30,402 bases of DNA. Origin: Rhodospirillales bacterium (GTDB taxonomy: Bacteria > Pseudomonadota > Alphaproteobacteria > Bin95). The notes under the pieces were generated by a model. The model saw nothing but the letters and a program-made list of their open reading frames with translations. It was not told where the DNA came from and made no database searches. The translations under genes were made by a program, and so were the position numbers. Below are positions 1-18,050 of this stretch, one piece after another; the first letter of the stretch is position 1; each line of letters begins with the position of its first letter. The stretch is taken from the NCBI GenBank assembly GCA_038143065.1, contig JAYQLI010000036.1, forward strand, positions 1 to 30,402, read 5' to 3'.

Positions 1-100
1 GAATCCAGCTATAACAATAGCTTAGCAGATCATCACAAATGGTAAACTATTAAAACCTTACCTGCAACCTTGCCTGAACCAAGGTCCAGGACCGGGGACC
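1..100 (+). repeat. Att-arm repeat copy 1 (cut by the window edge, short heptamer tract)
   Basis: 1-84 aligns ungapped with 8425-8508 (7 mismatches in 84, counted by hand); followed by heptamers accaagg/tccagg/accgggg, then diverges near 100. Confidence 0.92.
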
Positions 101-128
101 GCTGCTCTGAGGCAAACGTTTAAATCTA

Positions 129-1568
129 TTATTTCTGGTTCACGAATTCTGCATTAACCCCGGGGGGAGGTGTAGCACCGAATCCGCCTTTTGCGACAAC
201 GGCCTCTATGCCGCCATTTGCGTTTACGATAGCCATCTGATCAGCCTTCGCCATGGCATCTACTGCTTCTGGGTCACATATTGACCGAAGTTCGGTTTCC
301 AATTGTCTGCGTATGCCATCGTGCTTTGGGTTGGCACCAAGATCACACAATTCTTGCGGGTCCTCAGCTAAATTGAATAACTGTGGCTGCATTGATACAT
401 AATAGACCAATTTCCACTGTCCTTTGCGGATCATAAAAGCACCAGTTGCTGATCCCACAGCATGATATTCAGAAAAAACCAATCTCTCAAAATCATCTGC
501 AGCGTTTGCCAAATCGACGAGCGATTTACCTGGCTTTGCCATTGGGTTGATACCTGCGGTTTTTAGTATCGTTGGGTAGACATCAATCAAGGAAACAGGT
601 GTTTTTGAGGTTTTACCCGAGGGAATTCCTGGGCCTTTTACAATGCAGGGTATACCTACTGACTCTTCATAGAAAGTTCGATTTTCCCCATAATTCCCGT
701 TCACCAATGTTATCACCGTGATCGCTGAGGTAAAAAATCTGTGTGTTGTCGGTAAGACCATTGTGTTCAACCGCTCCTAAAATTTTGCCAATCAAATCAT
801 CAATGAACGTGACAAGCCCGTAATAGGATGCCAGCGCAACCCGTGTTCGCTCTAATGTAAAGTTATCCATGATTTGACAATTTCGCATGGCGTAATGCCA
901 AGGATGCTCTGGGGACTCCCGGGGTTTTGTGGGCATCAAACCAAGCTTGTCATAGAGATCGTAGAATTCTTGCGGTGCGATCAACGGAAAGTGCGGTGCT
1001 ACCATGGATACAAACAGCACCCAAGGTTTCTTTTGTTTGCCATTCGTGGCTAACCACTCTATCGCTTCAGTTGCTACCTGACGGTCATAAATATTGTAGT
1101 CAGTCTCCCTGGGCCAATCTTTTCAGCCATAGACAAAGACTTCCAGCGCTTTGGTAAAGGTTCCCTAACGCAGCCCAGCACATCACCAGTCCCGTTGACT
1201 ACATGCATTGGTATTTTTTGAAAATCCAACCCCACGTCGTCATCTGAGTTACGGTAATGTAGTTTGCCGATTGACCCCACTGTGATACCGGCTTTTTGTA
1301 GCTCGTTGCCCCAAGAGTTTGGTGTGCCAAAATAGGGCGTGGCGTTATCCCAATGACGCGAACGGTGCGCATAATCTCCTGTTGCAAAGGAGGCTCTGGC
1401 GGGCACGCAAATAGGCACATTGGTGTATGCGTTTTCAAATAATGTCCCCTTAGCCGCAAGTTGATCGATATGGGGTGTTTTAACCATTTTATTGCCATAA
1501 CAACCAAGAACCTTCCGCGTGTGCTCGTCAGTCATTAATATGAGCTGGTTAACGGGTCTGTCTTGCAT
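129..1568 (-). CDS. Sulfatase (choline-sulfatase-like, formylglycine-dependent), split over three ORFs by probable indel errors
   Basis: DEH..TPHIDQLA..G, CVPAR (CxPxR), GKLH, APHFP, SDHGD..G..WGK, QLFNLAEDPQE across ORFs 1074-1613, 667-1020 and 129-770; ATG at 1568. Confidence 0.9.
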
Positions 1569-1826
1569 TAGTGAGCGTCCTCTTGGGCAGTGAACTTTAG
1601 AAAGGGCAAGCAAAGCTTATCTGTAAGGAAATAAAATTAAAACCTTCTAAGTGAGGGCACCTATATATTTTAGGAAATGTCACAGTTGCGCATTGCTTGC
1701 CGTTCATTATTCAAAAGCCTTCTAGAAATGTTGCTGAAACCCGATACAGATCCTCGCAGAGCTCATGCTTTTCCTGTTCGGGCATTACAAACTTCATCAA
1801 TAAAAAATTTCCAAAGGAGCTGGCCC

Positions 1827-3050
1827 TTACCTTTTGAGCGTACCGTCCAGCGCTGCGATCAACTTGGTCATGTCCGCGGTAGATGTATAATGGACAAATG
1901 ATAGTCTTACTGCGCCTGCGTCTGGGTCAAGACCCATCTGATTAAACAATCTGGCGGCATAATAATGACCTGCACCCGCCATGATGCCCTTGCTTGCCAA
2001 TTTTTTGCCAATGTCAGCGGCTTTCATATGCGGGACCACGAAGCTTATTGTGGCCGCCCGCGCCTCAGGATCAGAAGACCCAATCAAGTGCACATCATTT
2101 CGCGATTCAATATATTCAAGCAACGTCCTGATATGAGGGGTTTCAGCACTTTTGAAAAGGTCAGTTATTCGGCGCGGGCGCTCACTATCGTCTTGACCAC
2201 CATGGTGCGCGTCTAAGGCATCAAAATAATCGATAACACCATTCGCAGCAGCCACCTGAGCATGATCCGGCCCAGCTGGCACCATCCATTTCATTGGATT
2301 ATCATGATTGAAGAAATGAGATTGCGGCGCAAACAATGGTCGTGCAGCATTTCGAATAACCATAACCCCTTGGTGAGGACCATAGGTTTTATAAGTTGAA
2401 AACAGGTAAACATCTGCACCCAGCGCATCCACATCAGGAAAGCCGTGCGGGCAATAGGATACCCCATCAACCAGTAAGAGCCCTCCTGCTTCATGTGTCG
2501 CGTCGGCAATTTGGCGCACTGGATTAATTTCACCAACAAGGTTGGAACAATGAGTGACGGCGACTAAGCGAACTTTATTGTCGAGCAAGGAAAGCAAGTC
2601 AGAAAGCCGCAGCCGCCCATCTGCAGGATCGACAGGCCATATACGAACATCAATGCCATAATCAGCAAGTTTGCGCCAAACTCCACTGTTAGCCTCATGC
2701 TCCTGCGCTGAAACAATGATAGCCTCACCCTCAGCAAGTCTTTCAAGGCACGCCCATGCAAGCACATATGTGTTTTGTGAAGTTGAAGGACCAAAAAGGA
2801 CTTCGTCGGCATCAACATTCAGATAACGAGCAAAACGTATCGGTGCCAGATCCATTTCTTCGCCAGCAATTTTTGAAGCGGCAAAAGCATAATAGGGCTG
2901 CACCTTGCGCTGCTCAAAATAGCGATTGAAACGATCGATCACCTGTTGACACATGTAGGATCCACCAGCGTTCTCAAAGAATGATTGTCCGTTGAGCGAC
3001 GGCGTTGCAAATGCGGGAAATTGGCGGCGAACAAAGTCAAGATCTATCAT
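1827..3050 (-). CDS. Aminotransferase class V / cysteine desulfurase-like PLP enzyme
   Basis: Intact 407 aa; VRRQFP..FENAGGS, EHEAN, HCSNLVG, VDGVS, FSTYKTYGPH (PLP lysine), VRLSFVHYT. Confidence 0.9.
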   Translation of the reverse strand: MIDLDFVRRQFPAFATPSLNGQSFFENAGGSYMCQQVIDRFNRYFEQRKVQPYYAFAASKIAGEEMDLAPIRFARYLNVDADEVLFGPSTSQNTYVLAWACLERLAEGEAIIVSAQEHEANSGVWRKLADYGIDVRIWPVDPADGRLRLSDLLSLLDNKVRLVAVTHCSNLVGEINPVRQIADATHEAGGLLLVDGVSYCPHGFPDVDALGADVYLFSTYKTYGPHQGVMVIRNAARPLFAPQSHFFNHDNPMKWMVPAGPDHAQVAAANGVIDYFDALDAHHGGQDDSERPRRITDLFKSAETPHIRTLLEYIESRNDVHLIGSSDPEARAATISFVVPHMKAADIGKKLASKGIMAGAGHYYAARLFNQMGLDPDAGAVRLSFVHYTSTADMTKLIAALDGTLKR

Positions 3051-3276
3051 GTGAAACCCTCAGGAGTTTAGTTCGTTGGTTTGTACCAGAAACCCTCGAT
3101 ACTAATAATTTGGCAGGATTAGCTCCGACAACAAGCGTAAACTGATAGGGACGGCGGATAACGTTTTAAACATAAACTCTTCCCCCTCGTGGAAATGAAT
3201 ATCTGTCACCTAATAATAAAAACTCAAGTTCTAGCCAAAATATAGTTCTGTATAGCGATGAGCTACCCAATTAGCC

Positions 3277-3374
3277 CCGGACACCTGGACACTCCGTAGG
3301 AGTGTGTCCTGTCCGTCCGGTAGTTCGGCCCCGGACATAATCTTAATTGTCCGGGTTATGTCCGGTCTGTCCGG
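3277..3374. repeat. Cluster of (CC)GGACA/TGTCC(GG) inverted and direct repeats with a central hairpin; replication-origin-like
   Basis: ccggaca 3277, ggacac 3287, perfect stem acactcc-gta-ggagtgt 3289-3305, tgtcc x2, ccggacataa 3331-3340 inverted to ttatgtccgg 3356-3365, tgtccgg 3348 and 3368. Confidence 0.7.
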
Positions 3375-3520
3375 CATCATGGATTTTAAGGGTGTAGATA
3401 TCATGTTTGACCTCGAGAAAAACCTTTTCAACAGGGTTTTTTCGCGCGCGTTCAAAAGCTTTTTGCTTCGCTTCTTGTGTGTCCGCTGTCTATCTCTGGT
3501 AAAAGATCGTCCGCCCACAA
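3343..3520 (-). pseudogene. C-terminal remnant of a RepA/AAA_25-type primase-helicase of integrative elements
   Basis: A frame absent from the ORF track reads RTIFYQR*TADTQEAKQKAFERARKNPVEKVFLEVKHDIYTLKIHDAGQTGHNPDN*, resembling the C-terminus of these helicases; one in-frame stop; runs into the repeat cluster. Confidence 0.5.
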
Positions 3521-4159
3521 TTGAAGAGGCCACGGAACGGTGGTTTCATGACGCAGATCTGGCACTCATGTGTATGGATGATGATGGGCTAGAGCGGCAT
3601 ATAGAAGACAAGCCTATGACTTGTTAGACATTATTTACCCGCTTTAAGAATGATGTAAGAGCTATAATAGACGGCGCTTTTTGTTGGGACACAAACGCTT
3701 CGTAGAAACACTGAGGGAAAAATTAAAACATGACCCAGAATTTGAACTGGTCCGATTGAGTGACGGCAAAGCTGTAAGGCGGCGGATTCTTGTGTAAGAG
3801 TGTAGGAAGCTTTTTATCCTTCATCCTTACCTTACCAATGTTATTAGGTAGGTCTTATTTTTGGGATTTCTTTCGACACTTCTACACTGCGTATGAAAAT
3901 AGACCGCTCTGGCTGGGGGTTGAAATTAACATTCCTGGATCCAGATCCGCGTTTCAAGCGTCTAGGACCACCATCCTCTGGCCAAACTCTGTGAACTGAT
4001 GTTAGCTTTTGTTATTGCTAATATCCATTGGCAGAAGCTGGTGATGCATCAAATGTTCATATTTGGCTGGGTGCCATTAGCCACATATTCTCTGATACTA
4101 CCGTCATTTTGTCCGGCGGTAGCATCAGAGTTTGTTGGTTTGAATTTTAGAGTATTTGT

Positions 4160-5005
4160 TTAGTCAGCATTTAGAACTGTAAATATTCCTGAAAATGGAG
4201 CTGAACCATATTCCTCAGGAATTGCATCATTACCATTATTGCTCATGAACTGAGTACCCTGACCGGTTAAACGAAACTGGAAGTTAAGGCCATAGGTTTG
4301 CGGCGTAATCGCAAATGGAATGGCTAGGTTCATCACCCCAACCACATGTGTTCTAAGTGTACATGGGCCTGCGGTTCCAGCAGCACTTCGCAATTTTGCA
4401 GAGTTAGTGATAAAACCATCAATAGTACCGCCAGTAACTACCGCGCCTAGGTAGCCTGAGAAGCAAGTGGGACCGCCAAAATTATCAAGGGACTCAGTCC
4501 TGTCAGCTGCTGGACCAGTTTGATCGGCACTACCATTTGCTAAGCCATACCAAACGGTGCCGTCTCCTGCAGTAAAAGTGGTCTTTGTAACAAATTGATT
4601 TTCGAACAGAATGTACGGATACCCATAAGTTCCGACTGGCGGTAAGGTACTTTCTCCATCCATTCCAAGCGATGTACCAATCAAGGCCGCAATATCTGTT
4701 GCGGTTGGCGTTGTGTCACTGTAAACAACGGAGCAGGTGGAGGCGTCAAACGCTTCAGCATCCTTACTGGTTCCATAGGGGTGCGCTGTACAAACACCCA
4801 TCTCGACAACTGTAATTTCGTATTTTTGAGGCGTTGCACCGCACGCCCCACTAGCTGGTGTTTGAGAAATAATGCCATTGGTACCGGCAGTTGCAACACA
4901 AGGGTTCATGGTCTCAGCGTCTACCTTTGCTCCTAAGGCAAAAGCATTAGCAGTTAGAAACAAAGAGCTAAGAAGTATAGTGAGTTGTGACAACAGATTT
5001 CTCAT
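4160..5005 (-). CDS. Secreted hypothetical protein (Gly/Thr/Ala-rich, several Cys)
   Basis: Intact ORF; signal peptide MRNLLSQLTILLSSLFLTANAFA; GGAGG RBS; starts 1 nt after the upstream stop. Confidence 0.8.
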   Translation of the reverse strand: MRNLLSQLTILLSSLFLTANAFALGAKVDAETMNPCVATAGTNGIISQTPASGACGATPQKYEITVVEMGVCTAHPYGTSKDAEAFDASTCSVVYSDTTPTATDIAALIGTSLGMDGESTLPPVGTYGYPYILFENQFVTKTTFTAGDGTVWYGLANGSADQTGPAADRTESLDNFGGPTCFSGYLGAVVTGGTIDGFITNSAKLRSAAGTAGPCTLRTHVVGVMNLAIPFAITPQTYGLNFQFRLTGQGTQFMSNNGNDAIPEEYGSAPFSGIFTVLNAD

Positions 5006-5006
5006 A

Positions 5007-6013
5007 TTAAACTCCTCCAATTCCAGCAACGAACTTGGTTTGGATTACAATTGCGTTATTACGCCGAACCTTATCGAGCATTTTTGTCTTTCATCGACGC
5101 GCTCTCAAACATTTCACTTGAGAATAATGGCTTGCTAGACTGGGCGGCCGCAGCCCCCATTGGAATGGTGTAGGTTAATTGGCCAAAATTCTCGTCTTTT
5201 GAAGCCCATCATAGTCTCTGCGACCAAGCTCAACCTGAACACCGTTTATCAACTGTGAAAAGGCAAGGCTGTAGGTATTACCCTTAGTGTCACCAGCGCC
5301 GTCTTCGCCCTTCCATTTCCAATTTTTCACATAAAGCTTTGCAGCGGGCATATAGGGAATTTGTGCGCCAAGCTCGATATCATGCCCGTCCAGTGCCCGT
5401 TCTTGATTGCCGCTCTTGCCTTTTTCCATTTGGTTAGGGCCTTGTAGCTGTTCGCAGTCAATTCGAAGGCCGAGGCTTTCAACTCTGCCCCAAGGCTGAC
5501 CCGCTGATGCCCATACTTTGGATCATAATCAAGAAATGCGTTGAAACCAGTAAGAACAGTTTCGTCGTCACTGAGGTAACGACGCCCCAAAAGGTTGATT
5601 ACTGCTCTTGAGTTGGCGTTACCAATCGATGACTGCATGAAAGTCTGCGCCTGACCATCATCACTAGGCTCAAAGCCTTTTACGTTTGTGATAAAGTAGC
5701 GTGTCTTTTTGCTTTTGATGCCAGTGATGCTGATGTCAGTTTTGGAGTAGGCCATGGAACTGTCTATAGCAGCAGCAGTTGACATGGCAGCTTTATCAAC
5801 GCTTTTCTTCACAACACCGTCAACCAAAGCCTGCTCTGGATTGGCACTGCCTGCCGCATCAGATGCCATCTTGGCAGCGGTTTCCTGACGTTGACCCGCG
5901 CTATCATCCGGGCCGAAAACAAAATCGACCGTGTTATTCCACCCACTGCTGATCGAAGAACAGCCAGTGAGGGACAGCAAAAGCACACTGCCTGCGAGTT
6001 GGGACTTTTTCAT
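5007..6013 (-). CDS. Inverse autotransporter (intimin/invasin-type) beta-barrel protein with a lipoprotein signal and no passenger
   Basis: Lipobox LTG-C; IN.G.RYL, GFNAFLDYD..HQRVSLGAEL, LTANSY, ERALDGHDIE.GAQIPYMP; after indel correction ends ..MLDKVRRNNAIVIQTKFVAGIGGV* (stop 5007-5009). Confidence 0.85.
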
Positions 6014-6374
6014 AATTTACGACTCAGCATGTAAATAGCGATCGATATCAAGCGATCAACTTTCATCAGATTAGCAAGTCATAACAAACTATGGATATAT
6101 TAGCTAGCGGCAAAAGCTTTAAAGGCGAACGCGAAGGTGGGTTTGGCATCAATAACATGATAACGCGCGCCAGAAAAATAAACGCCAAAATTGACCTTGC
6201 ACCGATTGCTGGTGGGGCAATTCTTACCATCCATTTGCCTTAATCACTGGTTTATTGCTGGCGGATAATCATTTGAAATGGAGAAAGACGAGGTTTTTTA
6301 CGATTTGGTGGTAGGTCTTTAAAGTCAAAATTTTGTGGCTATCATTTCGCAAATCTGTGCCGTTAATCATCTCT

Positions 6375-6860
6375 ATGAAAGCTCAACTATCTATTCTATG
6401 CCTATTAATGGCAAGTGCAATGGCGCTAATTCAATCGCATGCTGCGGTGGCCGAAAAAGGCCTTGTCTGCAGCAAAGCAGAGGATCTTTTATCTCAATGG
6501 ACCGTGAGTGATAGGCCATTATTATCTGTGGTTGCACATTGGTTTGATGAAAAAAGGGTCTCAACACTCACTTGGCAACGAAAAAATGACAGCATTGAGA
6601 TGAAGGCAACACGCCGCGGTGTCCCCTATGAAACTGACATGTCGTCAATAAAGTGGACATTGAGCACTAACGGTCAAGAAATCAATATTTCAATAGACCG
6701 CAACACTGGCCAAAGGTCAGTTATGAAAGATGAAATAGCGGTTGTCTCTGTTGATTGTGAATTATTTGACTCTGAAAAGGCGTTTCAGGAGAAATTGAAA
6801 GAATTAACAAACAGCCTTCAGTTAAATTATGACTCAGCGATTGCAAATCACAAATTGTAA
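6375..6860 (+). CDS. Secreted hypothetical protein
   Basis: ATG 6375, signal peptide MKAQLSILCLLMASAMALIQSHAAVA; two Cys in the mature part; IDRNTG motif. Confidence 0.7.
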   Translation: MKAQLSILCLLMASAMALIQSHAAVAEKGLVCSKAEDLLSQWTVSDRPLLSVVAHWFDEKRVSTLTWQRKNDSIEMKATRRGVPYETDMSSIKWTLSTNGQEINISIDRNTGQRSVMKDEIAVVSVDCELFDSEKAFQEKLKELTNSLQLNYDSAIANHKL

Positions 6861-6940
6861 GACCTCTAACATTGTCTGAATTATTTTAGCGACAGAAATC
6901 ACTTACGTCAAAAACAAACAGGTGGTCGATCAATCAAGTA

Positions 6941-7236
6941 AACCGGCCCCTTGAGCCGCAAGCCCCTGAGTCCTGCGCCCACCCCTCTAATCAAGTCCAA
7001 ATCTGATTAAGAAACGGCTCCAGTAACCCCGGTCCGTGGTCCACGGTGCTGGACAAGTTTCTGAAACCCAAACCTTGGCTCATGATGCTCGAAACTTGGT
7101 CCTCGAACCTCGGACCTTGGTTCAGGCAAGGTTGCAGGTAAGGTTTTAATACTTGACCATATTTAACGAAATGCTAAGCTATTGTTATAGCTAGATTCAG
7201 TCACGAATTGGCGCTGTGGATAGGCATCGAACTTCT
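6941..7236 (-). repeat. Att-arm repeat copy 2 (inverted), joined directly to the integrase coding sequence
   Basis: Reverse complement of 7115-7236 matches 8387-8508 ungapped (15 mismatches in 122); ~13-14 heptamers; weaker similarity continues through ttactg to about 6941. Confidence 0.92.
7153..7180 (+). promoter_or_regulatory. Putative sigma70 promoter within the repeat, facing the integrase
   Basis: TTGACC-N16-TAAGCT with an extended -10 TG at 7172-7173. Confidence 0.35.
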
Positions 7237-8300
7237 CAGCATCGCTTCCAAAAAGCGTAAGATTGAAGTATCCCCTGCGCACGAAATCAAACAAAGGCTG
7301 CTAAATCTGCCGCGGCGCTGTCTGATCGGCTCGAGCGATATTGGGATAGTCTCCGGATGGAGATGATCTATTCATTGGGAACTTGGTTTGAGGGTGCAAC
7401 GCCAGACGCTAAGACTTGTTCCAGTGCCAAAGCTTTTCTATAACAGAGGCGCTGGCGCTCTATCATCGTTTGAAGGGTGTTGGAAAGACAAAGCTGTTTT
7501 TCGAGTCCTCAGAACGAAGCATGCGCTACCTGATAGATTGTCTGGGGCATGATGATTTGGCGGTACTTAAAATTTCAGATGCTGGTCGGTTTCGGGATTA
7601 TCTATTCGATCGGGGTATGTCTTCATCATCAGTAAAGCGGGTATTCTCATCTGTGCGAGCAGTGATCAATCTCGCCATTCGAGAACAGGGCCTATCCATC
7701 AATAACGTGTTCAGCGGCACATTCATTCCAGACGATGAAGCCAAGACGCAACGCTTACCCATCCCAACTGATTCGCTACTAACCATTCAGGATGAATGTA
7801 TGCAGTTGGATGATGAACCAAGATGGTTGATTGCCCTTATCAGCGATACTGGTATGCGCTTATCAGAAGCCTGTGGGTTGCTGACATCCGATATATGTTT
7901 GGATGGCGAATTACCGCACATCACCCTTGTTGCGCATCCTTGGCGGCGGTTGAAGACAGGGCCTAGCTCGAGGTCAATTCCACTGGTTGGCGCGTCTTTT
8001 TGGGCAGCAAAGCAAATCGTAAAGCAAGGCCATCAATTTGCCTTCCCTAAATTCTGCAACGAGTCCAAGTGCAATGCTAACTCTGCAAGTGCAGCGCTGA
8101 ACAAATGGCTAAAGCCTCGTGTTCCCAACGGATGTGTTATCCACTCGTTCCGACATAGCTTAAGAGACAGGCTCGGGCTTATCGAATGTCCTGCTGATGT
8201 AATCGACTCCATAGGTGGGTGGACCACCGAGGGCGTTGGGCACCAATATGGTAAAGGTCACAGCTTGCTGGTAATGAACAGATGGATGAAGAAGCTATGA
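7237..8300 (+). CDS. Tyrosine recombinase/integrase with a DUF6538-like N-terminal region; apparently 5'-truncated at the repeat junction
   Basis: DTGMRLSEA (R), RLKT (K), HSFRH (HxxR), GGW, QYG (Y); upstream of the called ORF the indel-corrected reading is QHRFQKRKIEVSLRTKS..AAKSAAALSDRLERYWDSLRME. Confidence 0.92.
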
Positions 8301-8370
8301 ACCTCGGTTCAAGAACCAAGATCCGAGAAAACAGTCACTTGTATCTCGGTCCACGGACCTTGAACTTGGG
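8301..8370 (+). repeat. Degenerate heptamer tract between the integrase stop and the tRNA fragment (second att arm)
   Basis: In-register 7-mers acctcgg ttcaaga accaaga tccgaga [aaacagt cacttgt] atctcgg tccacgg accttga acttggg. Confidence 0.7.
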
Positions 8371-8373
8371 AAG

Positions 8374-8396
8374 TGGCGCGCTCGGAAGAAGTTCGA
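8374..8396 (-). mobile_element. att core: 3'-end fragment of a tRNA-Arg
   Basis: Minus strand TCGAACTTCTTCCGAGCGCGCCA = T-loop-like + T stem + acceptor CGAGCGC + G discriminator + CCA, as in tRNA-Arg; no 5' half of a tRNA; 74 bp from the integrase stop. Confidence 0.7.
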
Positions 8397-8712
8397 TGCT
8401 TACACACAGCGCCATCCAGTGACTGAATCTAGCTATAACAATAGCTTGGCAGATTGTCACATATGGTCAACTATCAAAACCTTACCTGCAACCTTGCCTG
8501 AACCAAGGACTTCGGTTCGAGGCCCAAGGTCCGAGTTTCACGGACCATTGTCCAGCAGCCACGGATCAAGCGCTGGGGTTACTGCAGCACTTTCCTATTT
8601 CAGAATGACTTTGGCCGAGGGGGTGGGGCCTAGATTGGGCTGGGCGTTGCGCTCGGACCTCGGGAGCTTTGATGGGTTGGCAAAGGCAATGAGGTGTAAA
8701 TTCATCCTTAAG
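8387..8712 (+). repeat. Att-arm repeat copy 3 (most complete, ~326 bp)
   Basis: Core-proximal 122 bp shared with copy 2 (84 bp with copy 1), 11 heptamers at 8502-8578, distal ~130 bp shared with 15437-15563. Confidence 0.92.
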
Positions 8713-8818
8713 TAGAGGATAAAGTTGCCGCTGAAATGATCAGGCCATACGCCCCTCTGCCATACCCATAGGTATATATAGTTATATATAAAAAGATAAT
8801 AAGACAGATACGGTTTCG

Positions 8819-12997: not shown

Positions 12998-13156
12998 GCT
13001 TCTTCTCCGTTTGTCTTTTGTCCTTCGTATGTTTGCAAAATAAAAACATCAGAGCAAACTTACATCATGCGGAAAATTGGACGTCACTGAACAAAATTAC
13101 CGAACTTAGGACTTTTCAACTCATCAAAGTTCCGAGGTCCGCGGACAGTGCAACAG

Positions 13157-13630
13157 TTACTTTTGATCACCTAAAAGTTTTTTAGCTAACTTTACTCGGC
13201 TCTCTGGAGGCATTGACGCAATCTTTTTGACTAAAGTAGTTCGAACCAAGTCCAAACGGCGTGACAACCTAGAGTAATCCACTTCTATCAGAGCTAATAC
13301 TGCGTCGGCATCAAAGGGCGTTGCCTGAATAGCTTGGGCCAATTCTGTCGCCGTAGCTTGCCTAGCGCCTTTTTCCAGTCCAACACCTTTGCTTTGAGCC
13401 TCTTGGAACAAACGGCGGGTCTCACGCTGGTCCTCTCGATCCATTGCAAGCAACAGGGACCTAAGACCAGAAAAACGTTCGGGCAAGCCCACCCTTTGGG
13501 GCGAACCCAAATTAACTACCCGCAAATCCTTGTAGCCCTCCAAGCCAAAAAAACTGCCTATTGCGCCTACCACAAATAAGTTCGCAGCAAGTGAGATCCA
13601 CAGTAATAATTTCATTGTTTTTTTTGACAT
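13157..13630 (-). CDS. Periplasmic heavy-metal sensor (Metal_resist, Spy/CpxP-like)
   Basis: LLLWISLAANLFVVGA anchor, A.PFDADA, MPPESR..LA. Confidence 0.8.
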   Translation of the reverse strand: MSKKTMKLLLWISLAANLFVVGAIGSFFGLEGYKDLRVVNLGSPQRVGLPERFSGLRSLLLAMDREDQRETRRLFQEAQSKGVGLEKGARQATATELAQAIQATPFDADAVLALIEVDYSRLSRRLDLVRTTLVKKIASMPPESRVKLAKKLLGDQK

Positions 13631-13639
13631 TATTTTCTC

Positions 13640-14028
13640 CTAGGTGTGTGCCAGATAAAATCCCAGCTCATCACTCAGCCCAACCAAATCACTTAAGCGC
13701 TCCATTTGGGAAAAGGCAGTCGTGATATCCAATACAAATTTGGGAGGGTTGAACCCAACAATATTCCAAAGAACATAGCCGAAACCAAGCCTGCCCTTGG
13801 GAGCCAGCCGCGGGCCTGAGCTAAAACGTTGGCCAATTGATCAAATAACGGTCGTTCCTCAGGTGCGATTGCAATCTGCGGCTTCTTTAGCGCAGCCTCT
13901 ATGGCTTGGTTTTGTAGACGTTCGAGAAACTGCTCGCTCATTTCCAGTGTTGTTTTCTGAGTTTCATCAAATAGAAGGCCCAATTCATGCTCGTTCAATG
14001 GCGGATACTTGAAATCTTTATTAGTCAT
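13640..14028 (-). CDS. Putative single-pass anti-sigma factor (frameshifted 3' end)
   Basis: EL..LF..SEQFLERL, then a GW..AGL..A..FG..LG transmembrane segment; start overlaps the sigma stop. Confidence 0.6.
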
Positions 14029-14579
14029 CTTCCAATCCTAATGTTTTTTTTGTGGGGCTAATGTTCTCGCCAAGGCTTGCTTGCCACGCGACACTAAACT
14101 TTCAACAGCTTCTATGGAAATCCCCATAATCTCAGAAATATCTGGGTTCGGCAGGCCTACAATGTGACGCAAAATGACCGCTCGCTTTTGCCGATCCGGC
14201 AGGGTCTCCAGCGCGTCGCAAGGCCTGCAGCCGCTCCTTGTTTTGTAAATTGCATTCCACATCTGGCGTATCATCTACCACTTCTTGCTGCACATCACCT
14301 GAATTGCGATTTGATTTCCGCAAATGGTCAATGCATAGATTAAACGTCACACGATAGAGCCAAGTGGTGATCTTTGCTTTGTTCGCCTTCCATTTTGGGG
14401 CCGCTTTCCAAAGACGTAAAAGACTCTCTTGGGTCACATCTTCCGCCTCTGCACGGTCATTCAGGATCCGGAGGGCTTGGCTGAAAACGACAGGAGCCAG
14501 ACGTGAATTCAAAGCAATAGCTGCAGCGATCACCATTTGAAAATCTAGCAAGAAGTTCCTCATCCCTGTGGCTTTTCAT
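14021..14579 (-). CDS. ECF RNA polymerase sigma factor (frameshifted)
   Basis: MKSHRDEELLARF..GD, AEAEDVTQE..LRLW, TWLYRV..NLCIDHLR, LPDRQK.AVILRH..GL.N.DI.EIMG.S.EAVESL.SRG. Confidence 0.9.
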
Positions 14580-14785
14580 TGTTTCTAAAAAGTCATCTGT
14601 ACAAGAATTTTCAAACCACCTTCCAATTTCGTCTCAGCCCTTACTTAATCAAATCTACGGCAAAACCAATGTCGTTGTTATCAACACTGGTTGTCTAACG
14701 TGCTGGGCGTTGCAAAGAAATCATATAACCAAAATCACGGCGATTAGGGGCATCGGGGCCAAGGCGGCAATTAAATTACAAATAA

Positions 14786-15301
14786 CTAGCCATTCTTCGA
14801 TGCCATAGGCTCGGACTTTGGTATCTCATCCATAAACATTTCTTGTTCTGTAAAGGCCTTAAGTTCTTTATCAGTTAGGCTCTTTGCTTTTGGCCTTGTC
14901 ATCCTGCTATTCATTGGAAGCGTCAAACTCTTTTGAGAAATCATCCCATCTTTATTTTTATCAAGATATTTAATCATCCGTTGCCCGCCAAGCCTGGCTT
15001 GCATTTCTGCTTGCTCGACAGCGCCGTTTCCATTTGTGTCCAGGCGCTTAAGTAACCAGTTTGACCGTTTTGTCATTGTGAGCATTAACTCATCTCTGCT
15101 CAGGCTACCGTTGCCGTCGATATCAATATTTGCAAACCTTGCTGTGCCATAGGTCTGAATTTCAGCCTTGGTGATCATACCATCACCATTGGTATCCAGA
15201 ACTGAAAACACTGTTCTATCGCCGCGGAGATGCTGTGCAAATGCTGGGAAGAATGTTAGTGCAGCCATGGTAGCTAATGTCAGAATTGCGATCTTGTTCA
15301 T
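14786..15301 (-). CDS. Secreted EF-hand calcium-binding protein
   Basis: Signal peptide; four EF loops DTNGDGMITKAE, DIDGNGSLSRDE, DTNGNGAVEQAE, DKNKDGMIS; true 3' end probably shifted by an indel. Confidence 0.85.
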   Translation of the reverse strand: MNKIAILTLATMAALTFFPAFAQHLRGDRTVFSVLDTNGDGMITKAEIQTYGTARFANIDIDGNGSLSRDELMLTMTKRSNWLLKRLDTNGNGAVEQAEMQARLGGQRMIKYLDKNKDGMISQKSLTLPMNSRMTRPKAKSLTDKELKAFTEQEMFMDEIPKSEPMASKNG

Positions 15302-15436
15302 TTATAAATTCCCTCCAGTTGATCTGTTTGTGGTTGTTCGAGCGCGTAGCAATTTTCCTGCTTGTGTTGATAGAACGCACCAGCTCAAAGACTCCGTCGA
15401 ATAAACTGGAAAATTATTTTAGATCTAACTTGCTGG

Positions 15437-15590
15437 CCTTAATGAAACTGTATCTCATAGCCTCCGCAAACCCATCAAGCTCCAAGGTCCAAGGCGCAAC
15501 GCCCAACCCAATCTAGGCCCCCTTTGGCCAAAGTCATTCTGAAACAGGAAAATGATCCAGTAATTCGGTCCGTGTTCCACGGTCCATGGA
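15437..15590 (-). repeat. Att-arm repeat copy 4 (inverted; distal part plus 3-4 heptamers, core-proximal part absent)
   Basis: Reverse complement of 15437-15563 aligns to 8579-8712 (e.g. tttcagaatgactttggcc, cctagattggg, tgggcgttgcgc); 15557-15590 resembles 7020-7053. Confidence 0.88.
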
Positions 15591-15616
15591 AATGAGTTCA
15601 AGAGCAATTTAAACGT

Positions 15617-15657
15617 GGCAATGAACGCGGCAATGAACGCGGCAATGAACGCGGCAA
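15617..15657 (+). repeat. Perfect 12-bp tandem repeat (GGCAATGAACGC) x3.4
   Basis: Direct reading; a degenerate partial unit (aacgt) precedes it. Confidence 0.95.
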
Positions 15658-15715
15658 AAATTCAGAACACAAAAAAGAAGCCTCAATCCACTTTATTGTA
15701 ATAATGTGTATTTTT

Positions 15716-17272: not shown

Positions 17273-18050
17273 TTATCTGCTTCTGACCATATGAATGTTT
17301 TTGTGACCAAAAAAATTGCTGTGATAAAGGGACACAAAACCGGCCTTTGTCAAAAGGTCTATTGATGTTTCTATGTTTTCTTTGCTCCCGCCAGCTTCAA
17401 AATAAACATGCTGAATACGCTGGGCAAATTCACATTTGAGTAATTCACCAATGACAACACGCTCATAACCCTCGACGTCGATTTTGATGATCAACTCTTG
17501 TTCTGTTGTTGGGATAATGTCAGATAAATCTGACGCATTCACGCACTCTATTGAAACTGTATAACGTTCCTTAACAGCCGGTGATGGCGCGTCGAGTGAC
17601 AGAGACCCGCTATGATACTGATTTACAGAAACCTGCTTTGCCCTCTCTTATCAGCTATTGCGTAATGGTGAGCCGAGATGTTTTTGCGTTATTAACTCAA
17701 TATTTTTTGTTAAAAAACGTGACGTCGTTGGGTCTGGTTCAAAACAGTGGGAATGCACACAATAATGATTTTGACCTGCAATTAGCGAATACAATCCTGC
17801 ATTGGCACCAACATCGACAAAAACAAAATTTGACTTGTAGGTTTTAAGAAATCGTGAAAAATATTTTCCATAGAACCCAAAACAGCAAAACCAGAAGGTC
17901 ATATCCCATATTCTTGGTGACAGCTTTTGGGCCATAAACTGAAGTAATTCCTAAATTATAAAAATGAAATTTTTGGTAAAAACCAGTCTCGTTTAACCAC
18001 TTTTCAAAATGCTTTCGCAATTTAAAATGTGCAGGCTGGGATATAAGCAT
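17273..18050 (-). CDS. FkbM-family SAM methyltransferase (frameshifted, AT-rich)
   Basis: FVDVGANAGLYSL, CFEP, IKIDVEGYE..V. Confidence 0.8.

Follow-up and report, generated by a model that had tools for sequence, protein, structure and literature searches.

A tyrosine integrase gene cut at the edge of its att site, at a probable joint between two modules of a tRNA-type island array

The DNA analysed here (the window) comprises 30,402 nucleotides and is the whole of contig C36, one of 52 contigs in the assembly of a Rhodospirillales bacterium (G000). Its left part carries a tyrosine integrase gene without its beginning, lying between the arms of an inverted repeat (7076-7236 and 8387-8547; 161 nt, 83% complementary in a repeat search of the window). 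The features of the region are as follows, where L017 is a related locus and P0001 the best relative of the protein among the matches listed.

1..87, plus strand: copy 1 of the conserved flank, at the contig start and limited to the first module of that flank; 92% identical to 8425-8508.
6865..7236, minus strand: copy 2, inverted conserved flank (P arm of an att site), with the 161-nt inverted repeat shared with 8387-8547.
7216..7260, plus strand: frame of 14 codons starting with GTG and running across the junction (VDRHRTSQHRFQKA, then a stop), from three-frame translation.
7234..7239, no strand: junction between 7236 and 7237, where the flank ...AACTTCT is joined to CAG (Gln28).
7237..7415, plus strand: 5' remnant of the integrase gene, codons 28 to about 87, with the rest of the DUF6538 domain; broken by indels relative to L017.
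7416..8300, plus strand: open frame of 294 aa with the core-binding and catalytic domains of a tyrosine integrase (PF00589, 7.7e-11; PF13102, 5.5e-05; 96% identical to P0001).
8329..8373, minus strand: inverted copy of the P' arm; window positions 8329-8396 occur inverted about 40 nt upstream of the integrase gene in most loci.
8374..8389, minus strand: inverted att core, TGGCGCGCTCGGAAGA, the tRNA-Arg(ACG) 3' end including CCA, one base shorter than in relatives.
8390..8720, plus strand: copy 3, made up of the imitation T-arm and the flank; 92% match to L017 across 8301-8720.
15454..15563, minus strand: copy 4, a partial inverted distal flank module closing the second cargo block, from inverted repeats (8579-8669 versus 15477-15563) and BLAST.

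Copies 2 (about 6865-7236, inverted) and 3 (8387-8720) are real and their match is not due to chance, because the same flank sits downstream of the integrase gene in most related loci, as in L017 (92% over 420 nt). Their homology ends at 7236 and 8387, respectively, and copy 1 pairs with both of them. The original prediction had placed the end of copy 2 at 7236, followed from the next codon by integrase-like sequence, and both statements hold to the base: the homology to integrases of 380 aa (96% identical) begins exactly at 7237, which corresponds to Gln28, and continues from residue 28 onward. As was also proposed, copy 3 runs on into a tRNA fragment, identified here as the reverse complement, at 8374-8389, of the 3' end of the tRNA-Arg(ACG) genes located before intact relatives. 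Copy 3 is the standard downstream partner of the gene and not a separate relic, its tRNA fragment being the inverted core. Regarding copy 2, it ends in an imitation T-arm box, TTGGCGCTGTGGATAGGCATCGAACTTCT (7208-7236), shares 87% identity with L062 over 372 alignment columns (window 6865-7232) and aligns with the region upstream of the intact integrase gene in two further loci, L049 and L069. The P' arm found inverted after the gene is present in intact relatives also between the tRNA and the ATG.

A cargo block of 6.8 kb lies between copies 1 and 2, and a second one between copies 3 and 4. No whole tRNA was detected in the window by ARAGORN or Rfam, its sole tRNA-Arg-type remnant being the inverted 16-nt end, and Rfam at a permissive threshold gave no tRNA-like match for the imitation T-arm within 6800-8800. 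A direct copy of the core (attR) at the far end was likewise not found in the window, where copy 4 is truncated; one candidate site composed of P arm, core and non-arm sequence is present in L053. Copy 1 probably continues from the end of contig C37, which would make C37 and C36 neighbours: the end of C37 holds a 72-codon 3' fragment of another integrase, stopping where C36 would begin, and its positions 17707-17963 match the window at 8099-8355 with 88.8% identity. When considered as a candidate arm-type site, AAGGTCCG is only mildly enriched, with 28 matches against 18.7 expected (2 of 100 shuffles reach 28), and three of its four exact copies lie in att regions. Further to the right, window positions 13131-15634 recur at 92.5% identity on contig C39, beside a tRNA-Met gene; in the window this stretch ends in a 12-nt unit, ggcaatgaacgc, present as three tandem copies (about 15620-15665), C39 having one full copy and then a partial one.

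The protein search retrieved 6354 relatives, and of the 120 matches listed, 101 are about 380 aa long and carry DUF6538 (PF20172) together with PF00589. Compared with P0001 and with those 101 homologs, the window lacks 27 N-terminal residues. P0001 begins with MVWVRLPVYFYKRNDTFYFSRSIPSDL, followed by QHRFKKRKIEVSLRT, and across the break point it reads ...IPSDL and then QHRFKKRKIEVSLRT; in agreement, the tblastn match of residues 1-90 of this protein to the window begins with residue 28, at base 7237. Thus, the suspicion that no native N-terminus is visible proved right, with exactly 27 residues missing on alignment to full-length homologs, and these homologs do not naturally start at this position but 27 codons earlier. 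The 294-aa frame belongs to the tyrosine recombinases (phage integrases), as seen by its catalytic PF00589 match at 7.7e-11 and its SAM-like core-binding domain. It is not part of a complete translatable gene with DUF6538: this domain spans residues 9-68 of the intact relative (whose Pfam matches are PF20172, PF13102 and PF00589), the loss of residues 1-27 removes 19 of its 60 positions, and the rest is broken by six indels.

The GTG at 7216, pointed out in the original prediction, is indeed in frame with codon 28, but its frame ends at the TAA at 7258-7260, a stop 7 codons past the junction. The peptide read there previously, QHRFQKRKIEVSLRT, is not a literal translation and needs two frame corrections, the integrase-like pieces upstream of 7416 being spread over all three frames. 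Relative to L017, six uncompensated indels are found (7248, 7272, 7291, 7375, 7396 and 7428), five of them in 7237-7415 and the sixth, at 7428, just inside the part with the 294-aa frame. The unbroken form is present at 7289/7291, 7396 and 7428 in contigs of four public sequencing runs; among the public runs, none contains more than 0.33 of the sampled words. From 7431 to 8300 there is no net indel, as three indels cancel out within 10 nt, and the substitutions are even, with 8 in 194 positions before 7430 and 33 in 870 after it. The six indels are therefore confined to the 194 nt beside the junction, the next 870 nt remaining in frame; this crowding could be due to local consensus trouble, to mutation linked to repair or to constraint on the open frame of 294 codons.

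An AlphaFold (AF2) model was built from 34 homologs, with an overall mean pLDDT of 69.6 and block means of about 78-87 over residues 11-60. It places strands at 8-13, 16-22 and 35-40 and a helix at 45-73, and the best whole-protein fold matches are the Tn1549 and lambda integrases. As modelled, the DUF6538 N-terminal domain looks like the small arm-binding domains of lambda/Tn1549-type integrases, and the deletion takes the first two predicted β-strands of this domain. The gene cannot yield a normal integrase, and the left att site is no longer able to recombine.

The extent of the missing segment is given by the alignment with L049 and L069, in which the window matches up to ...GGCATCGAACTTCT and picks up again at CAGCATCGC. 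About 180 nt are absent at the junction: 14 nt belong to the core, 85 nt to the arm and leader together and 81 nt to codons 1-27. In a contig of run X3, the sequence following copy 2 after the equivalent of 7236 reads TCCCGAGCGCGCCATT, which is a normal core. On the left, the break falls 3 nt into the 17-nt block TCTTCCCGAGCGCGCCA that is common to the tRNA and the element (TCT, then TCCCGAGCGCGCCA), and the microhomology at the joint amounts to 1 nt, or to 4 nt (CTTC) assuming the loss of one T. A probe of 141 nt spanning the junction had no match in 36 genomes of the assembly's order, and none of the imitation T-arm boxes without arm in 96 related loci reads into integrase codon 28. A piece bridging 7236 and 7237 was not seen in the contigs of the four public runs, contigs being unable to show absence. 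A candidate at 4135 of L051 was considered as a second P arm cut at the same point and rejected as a chance 11-nt box inside a flank.

The layout of intact relatives was obtained from the 96 loci; marine metagenomes supplied 80 of these, and the other 16 were taken from species genomes, for the most part SAR116/Puniceispirillales MAGs. Of 50 loci scanned, 37 have a tRNA gene whose end precedes the integrase ATG by 84-87 nt, and the left site is formed by the last 17 nt of the tRNA and about 45 nt after it. The relatives thereby show the trait of tRNA-targeting island arrays, an integrase gene beside a tRNA 3' end that is common to the element. Eight tRNA types are found to the left of the gene: Arg-ACG, Arg-CCG, Gly-TCC, Gly-GCC, Gly-CCC, Thr-CGT, Thr-GGT and Leu-CAG. 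After the gene, an inverted core plus arm is present in 47 of the 96 loci; in 26 of these it comes 29-38 nt past the end of the protein match, and in the other 21 after 376-2569 nt containing one or two unrelated cargo genes (chalcone-isomerase-like, methyltransferase, LysR and DoxX, GMC oxidoreductase, HIRAN/GIY-YIG). The imitation T-arm box TGGCGCTGTGGGTAGGCATCGAAC lies outward of the inverted core in 42 of the 47, and a flank of ~330 nt comes next. The inverted core is specific to the left-hand tRNA: where both sites can be compared (33 loci), left and right core plus arm agree at 58 or more of 68 positions in 25. An unbroken integrase gene preceded by the inverted flank, imitation T-arm, core, arm and leader is found in L049 and L069, and diverged versions of this upstream arrangement occur in 16 further loci. 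As in shufflon or Fim-type systems, a segment is bracketed in the relatives by inverted sites (~68 nt of core plus arm), of which the window keeps the right one only; the two orientations of such systems were not seen in nature, as the tRNA is on the 5' side of the gene in 45 of 45 loci with a tRNA-type left site.

Several observations accompany this fixed layout, exemplified by L017 (2585-4330). In L003 (2395-3844, a MAG contig), the module lies between two complete convergent tRNA genes, Arg-ACG upstream and an inverted Gly-TCC downstream; it is the only locus with a real tRNA on the 3' side as well, so the right-hand inverted site can be a real tRNA. The left and right cores are of different tRNA types in L009, L020, L031, L051 and L001 (such as a Gly-GCC core on the left paired with an Arg core on the right), suggesting an exchange of ends between lineages. 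The spacing from the gene to the inverted site recurs at 653-654 nt in L004, L013, L062, L063 and L092, at 841 nt in L001 and L002 and at 1675-1681 nt in L027, L028, L030 and L036, as would be expected if the module held a limited number of conserved small cargo sets. Within the assembly, more than 12 DUF6538-integrase paralogs lie on small contigs, many of them broken, and inverted repeats of 48-123 nt surround the gene of distant paralogs in 6 of 11 loci examined (on C5, C46, C38, C12, C3 and C37; 27-69% identical across aligned segments).

The contig itself requires caution. Its sulfatase, UbiD and TPP enzyme genes are split into three pieces each, and its cover by long ORFs is 0.35; eight 50-kb chunks sampled from contig C35 (2.86 Mb) give 0.53-0.81, with six at 0.75-0.81; on the small contigs it is mostly 0-0.66, with four of 51 at 0.73-0.91. 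Part of the apparent decay on such a frame-broken contig may be sequencing error. The right half of C36 is colinear, at 70-71% identity, with Puniceispirillales genomes and matches only one of nine genomes of the assembly's own genus, compared to nine of nine for a sample of C35. In addition, the core differs in the tRNA-Arg(ACG) gene of C35 (CCCGGGCGCGCCA), which has no neighbouring integrase gene. C36 is probably mis-binned.

Fragments of integrase genes were also searched for elsewhere. The orphan 5' piece next to an att arm, for which the original prediction had suggested a search, is in none of the 52 contigs, and tblastn with residues 1-90 of P0001 gives paralogs only, at most 59% identical; this search is weakened because C36 is probably mis-binned and some of the genome to which it truly belongs may be missing from the bin. 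N-terminal integrase stubs stand alone beside tRNA-Arg in the MAG loci L015 (4001-4135, about 45 codons) and L016 (4001-4100, about 33 codons). They were considered as the reciprocal product and rejected, as their breakpoints differ; they are independent truncations from the other side. The 3' fragments in C37, C22, C1, C3, C12, C35 and C6, which seemed to begin near one residue, proved on alignment to be diverged paralogs with different limits and do not share a common breakpoint. Finally, the database proteins of 304-328 aa that lack DUF6538 result from start-site calls or contig ends and do not represent a recurring truncation, since the gene of L001, the source of P0038, is unbroken in its DNA.

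With moderate confidence, the region can be regarded as the place where two neighbouring modules of a tRNA-type integrative island array meet, and as containing a dead integrase gene. The ancestral state would have been like L049 and L069, with the inverted flank (P arm), the imitation T-arm, a 17-nt core of tRNA-Arg type, a P' arm of about 45 nt and a leader, followed by a full DUF6538-type tyrosine integrase gene of 380 codons and by the inverted core plus arm and flank (copy 3). A single event would then have removed the ~180 nt that begin 3 nt into the core and end with codon 27. The att core and the arm would have been lost with this segment, together with the ribosome-binding region, the start codon and the portion encoding the first two predicted β-strands of the N-terminal domain. 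The missing segment and its limits are read directly from the alignments, and we infer that it was lost in cis, as a deletion. In tRNA-targeting integrases, strand exchange is expected near the 5' edge of the tRNA-identity block. A break made by the integrase in the crossover region, then joined to non-att DNA, and a plain illegitimate deletion are about equally probable; the former is favoured by the position of the left end, 3 nt inside the block and near the expected strand exchange. In only a few percent of cases would a purely random deletion have its left end this near the edge of the core (an estimate, 17 nt of about 400), and a part of the integrase in making the break, whose left end lies in the presumed crossover region, is possible. 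Uniform decay also fits poorly, with six indels in the first 194 of 1064 nt and 294 codons left open ((194/1064)^6 is about 4e-5). The idea of self-inactivation is thus retained in so far as the gene is truncated at the boundary of its att site and inactive; recombination at a pseudo-att inside the gene is not supported.

Instead of a deletion in cis, the left module (cargo 88-6860 plus copy 2) might have integrated in trans, through its own attP, between codons 27 and 28 of a resident integrase gene, with the 5' piece lying beyond the left module or lost later. The P arm is kept up to 3 nt inside the identity block, resembling what an attR-type product would show if the crossover took place at the core's left edge, and copies 1 and 2 stand as inverted flanks around the 6.8-kb cargo as would be expected for one module. 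However, the region of codon 28 is unlike the core: the attP core agrees with it at only 2 of 16 positions in the junction register (ungapped), which speaks against the pseudo-att that had been postulated within the gene, and with shifts of up to 3 nt, 33-65% of gene positions match as well or better. Moreover, a fragment with codons 1-27 is in none of the 52 contigs, the end of C37 offering only the 72-codon 3' fragment of another integrase, and the event is unique among the 96 loci, so that such an insertion is rather unlikely. A programmed split of the SSV1 type, in which the att site lies inside the gene and integration parts int(N) from int(C) until excision restores it, is extremely improbable. 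Such "suicidal" integrases are, according to the available part of PMC8371274, defined by an att site inside their own gene, carry PF16795 (Phage_integr_3) and are known only in archaea, both halves of the gene flanking the element. The likeness to them is the superficial picture of an integrase coding sequence interrupted at an att junction, with an att arm abutting an internal codon. Here, by contrast, the site is the tRNA 3' end, 84-87 nt before the ATG (37 of 50 loci) and not inside the intact ORF, and the core is upstream of the ATG in the 45 of 96 loci with a visible tRNA-type left site. Furthermore, 82 of the 96 related genes are unbroken and the other 14 are broken at scattered places, the int(N) fragment was not found in the 52 contigs, and the family is defined by PF20172 and PF00589, not by PF16795, in a bacterial host. 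The breakpoint, whose recurrence in other genomes had been proposed as a check, is absent from the 96 loci and from the 36 relatives; the upstream core, the lack of an orphan in the assembly and the six additional indels likewise count against the proposed switch.

It may also be asked whether the junction and the frame breaks arose from a low-coverage, error-rich assembly of a repeat-rich region. The cover by long ORFs is low on the small contigs (mostly 0-0.66), many genes on this contig are split, the proportion of sampled words reaches only 0.33 even in the best public run, and the unbroken form exists at four indel sites in contigs of relatives. Nevertheless, a clean loss of 180 nt between two unrelated sequences is not a homopolymer-type error, the joint has no shared repeat able to mislead an assembler, and the substitution divergence is equal on either side of 7430 (8/194 and 33/870), making an artefact of this kind improbable. 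Still less probable is that the frame of 294 codons was kept as a working recombinase devoid of the arm domain, translated from an internal start and acting on the adjoining inverted att site. It would agree with the placement of all six uncompensated indels upstream of 7430, with 7431-8300 open, 96% identical to P0001 and intact in its catalytic-domain match; against it, inspection by eye reveals neither an ATG start nor a ribosome-binding site ahead of 7416, an open stretch of 870 nt is not unusual at the contig's break rate of ~1 per 600-700 nt (an estimate), and the form is absent from relatives, the shorter entries such as P0038 being start-site calls on the unbroken L001 gene. A more speculative proposal, which is possible yet doubtful, regards the junction as an off-target footprint of an undescribed kind of tyrosine-integrase module, in which DUF6538 integrases lie between two inverted complete att sites. 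Such a module would consist, in marine Alphaproteobacteria, of the integrase and zero to two cargo genes; one att site would be a real tRNA end and the other a built-in imitation T-arm with the same tRNA-specific core. These modules could be flipped or swapped by double recombination, as a natural cassette exchange, and the break at TCT/TCCC would mark the position cut by the enzyme.

In the literature searched, no double-att layout was found in which a tyrosine integrase and zero to two cargo genes lie between a tRNA-type att site and an inverted site bearing an imitation T-arm. A search on DUF6538 returned nothing, the matches listed for "inverted attP" all concern transgenic engineering in insects (Drosophila or mosquito), and the search combining Puniceispirillum, island, integrase and tRNA gave unrelated matches only. 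Compared to the tRNA-targeting integrases of the lambda/P4 type, the present family shares the three-part organization (small N-terminal, core-binding and catalytic domains), the location of the gene beside a tRNA 3' end and the 17-nt identity block that rebuilds the tRNA. It differs in having DUF6538 as its N-terminal domain, in the use by close relatives of at least eight tRNA genes at a fixed spacing of 84-87 nt and in the second, inverted att site after the gene. Degraded or fragmented integrases within tRNA island arrays of marine bacteria are described in the available part of the tycheposon preprint (bioRxiv 10.1101/2020.12.28.424599), although tycheposons, as presented there, differ from this element in host lineage and integrase family; in the same part, the word "inverted" appears in the reference list only, and "attP" and "SAR116" do not appear.

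The junction is thus a case of routine mobile-element decay and a new instance of a known thing. A dead integrase at the joint of an island is of low interest in itself, and it serves as a warning that a truncated integrase gene beside an att arm should not be read as a programmed switch. More interesting is the double-att design seen across a widespread marine family of DUF6538 integrases, which targets at least eight tRNA genes and carries a second, inverted att site with an imitation tRNA arm. If this design is functional, it would suggest that streamlined ocean bacteria have a general means of shuffling small gene cargoes.
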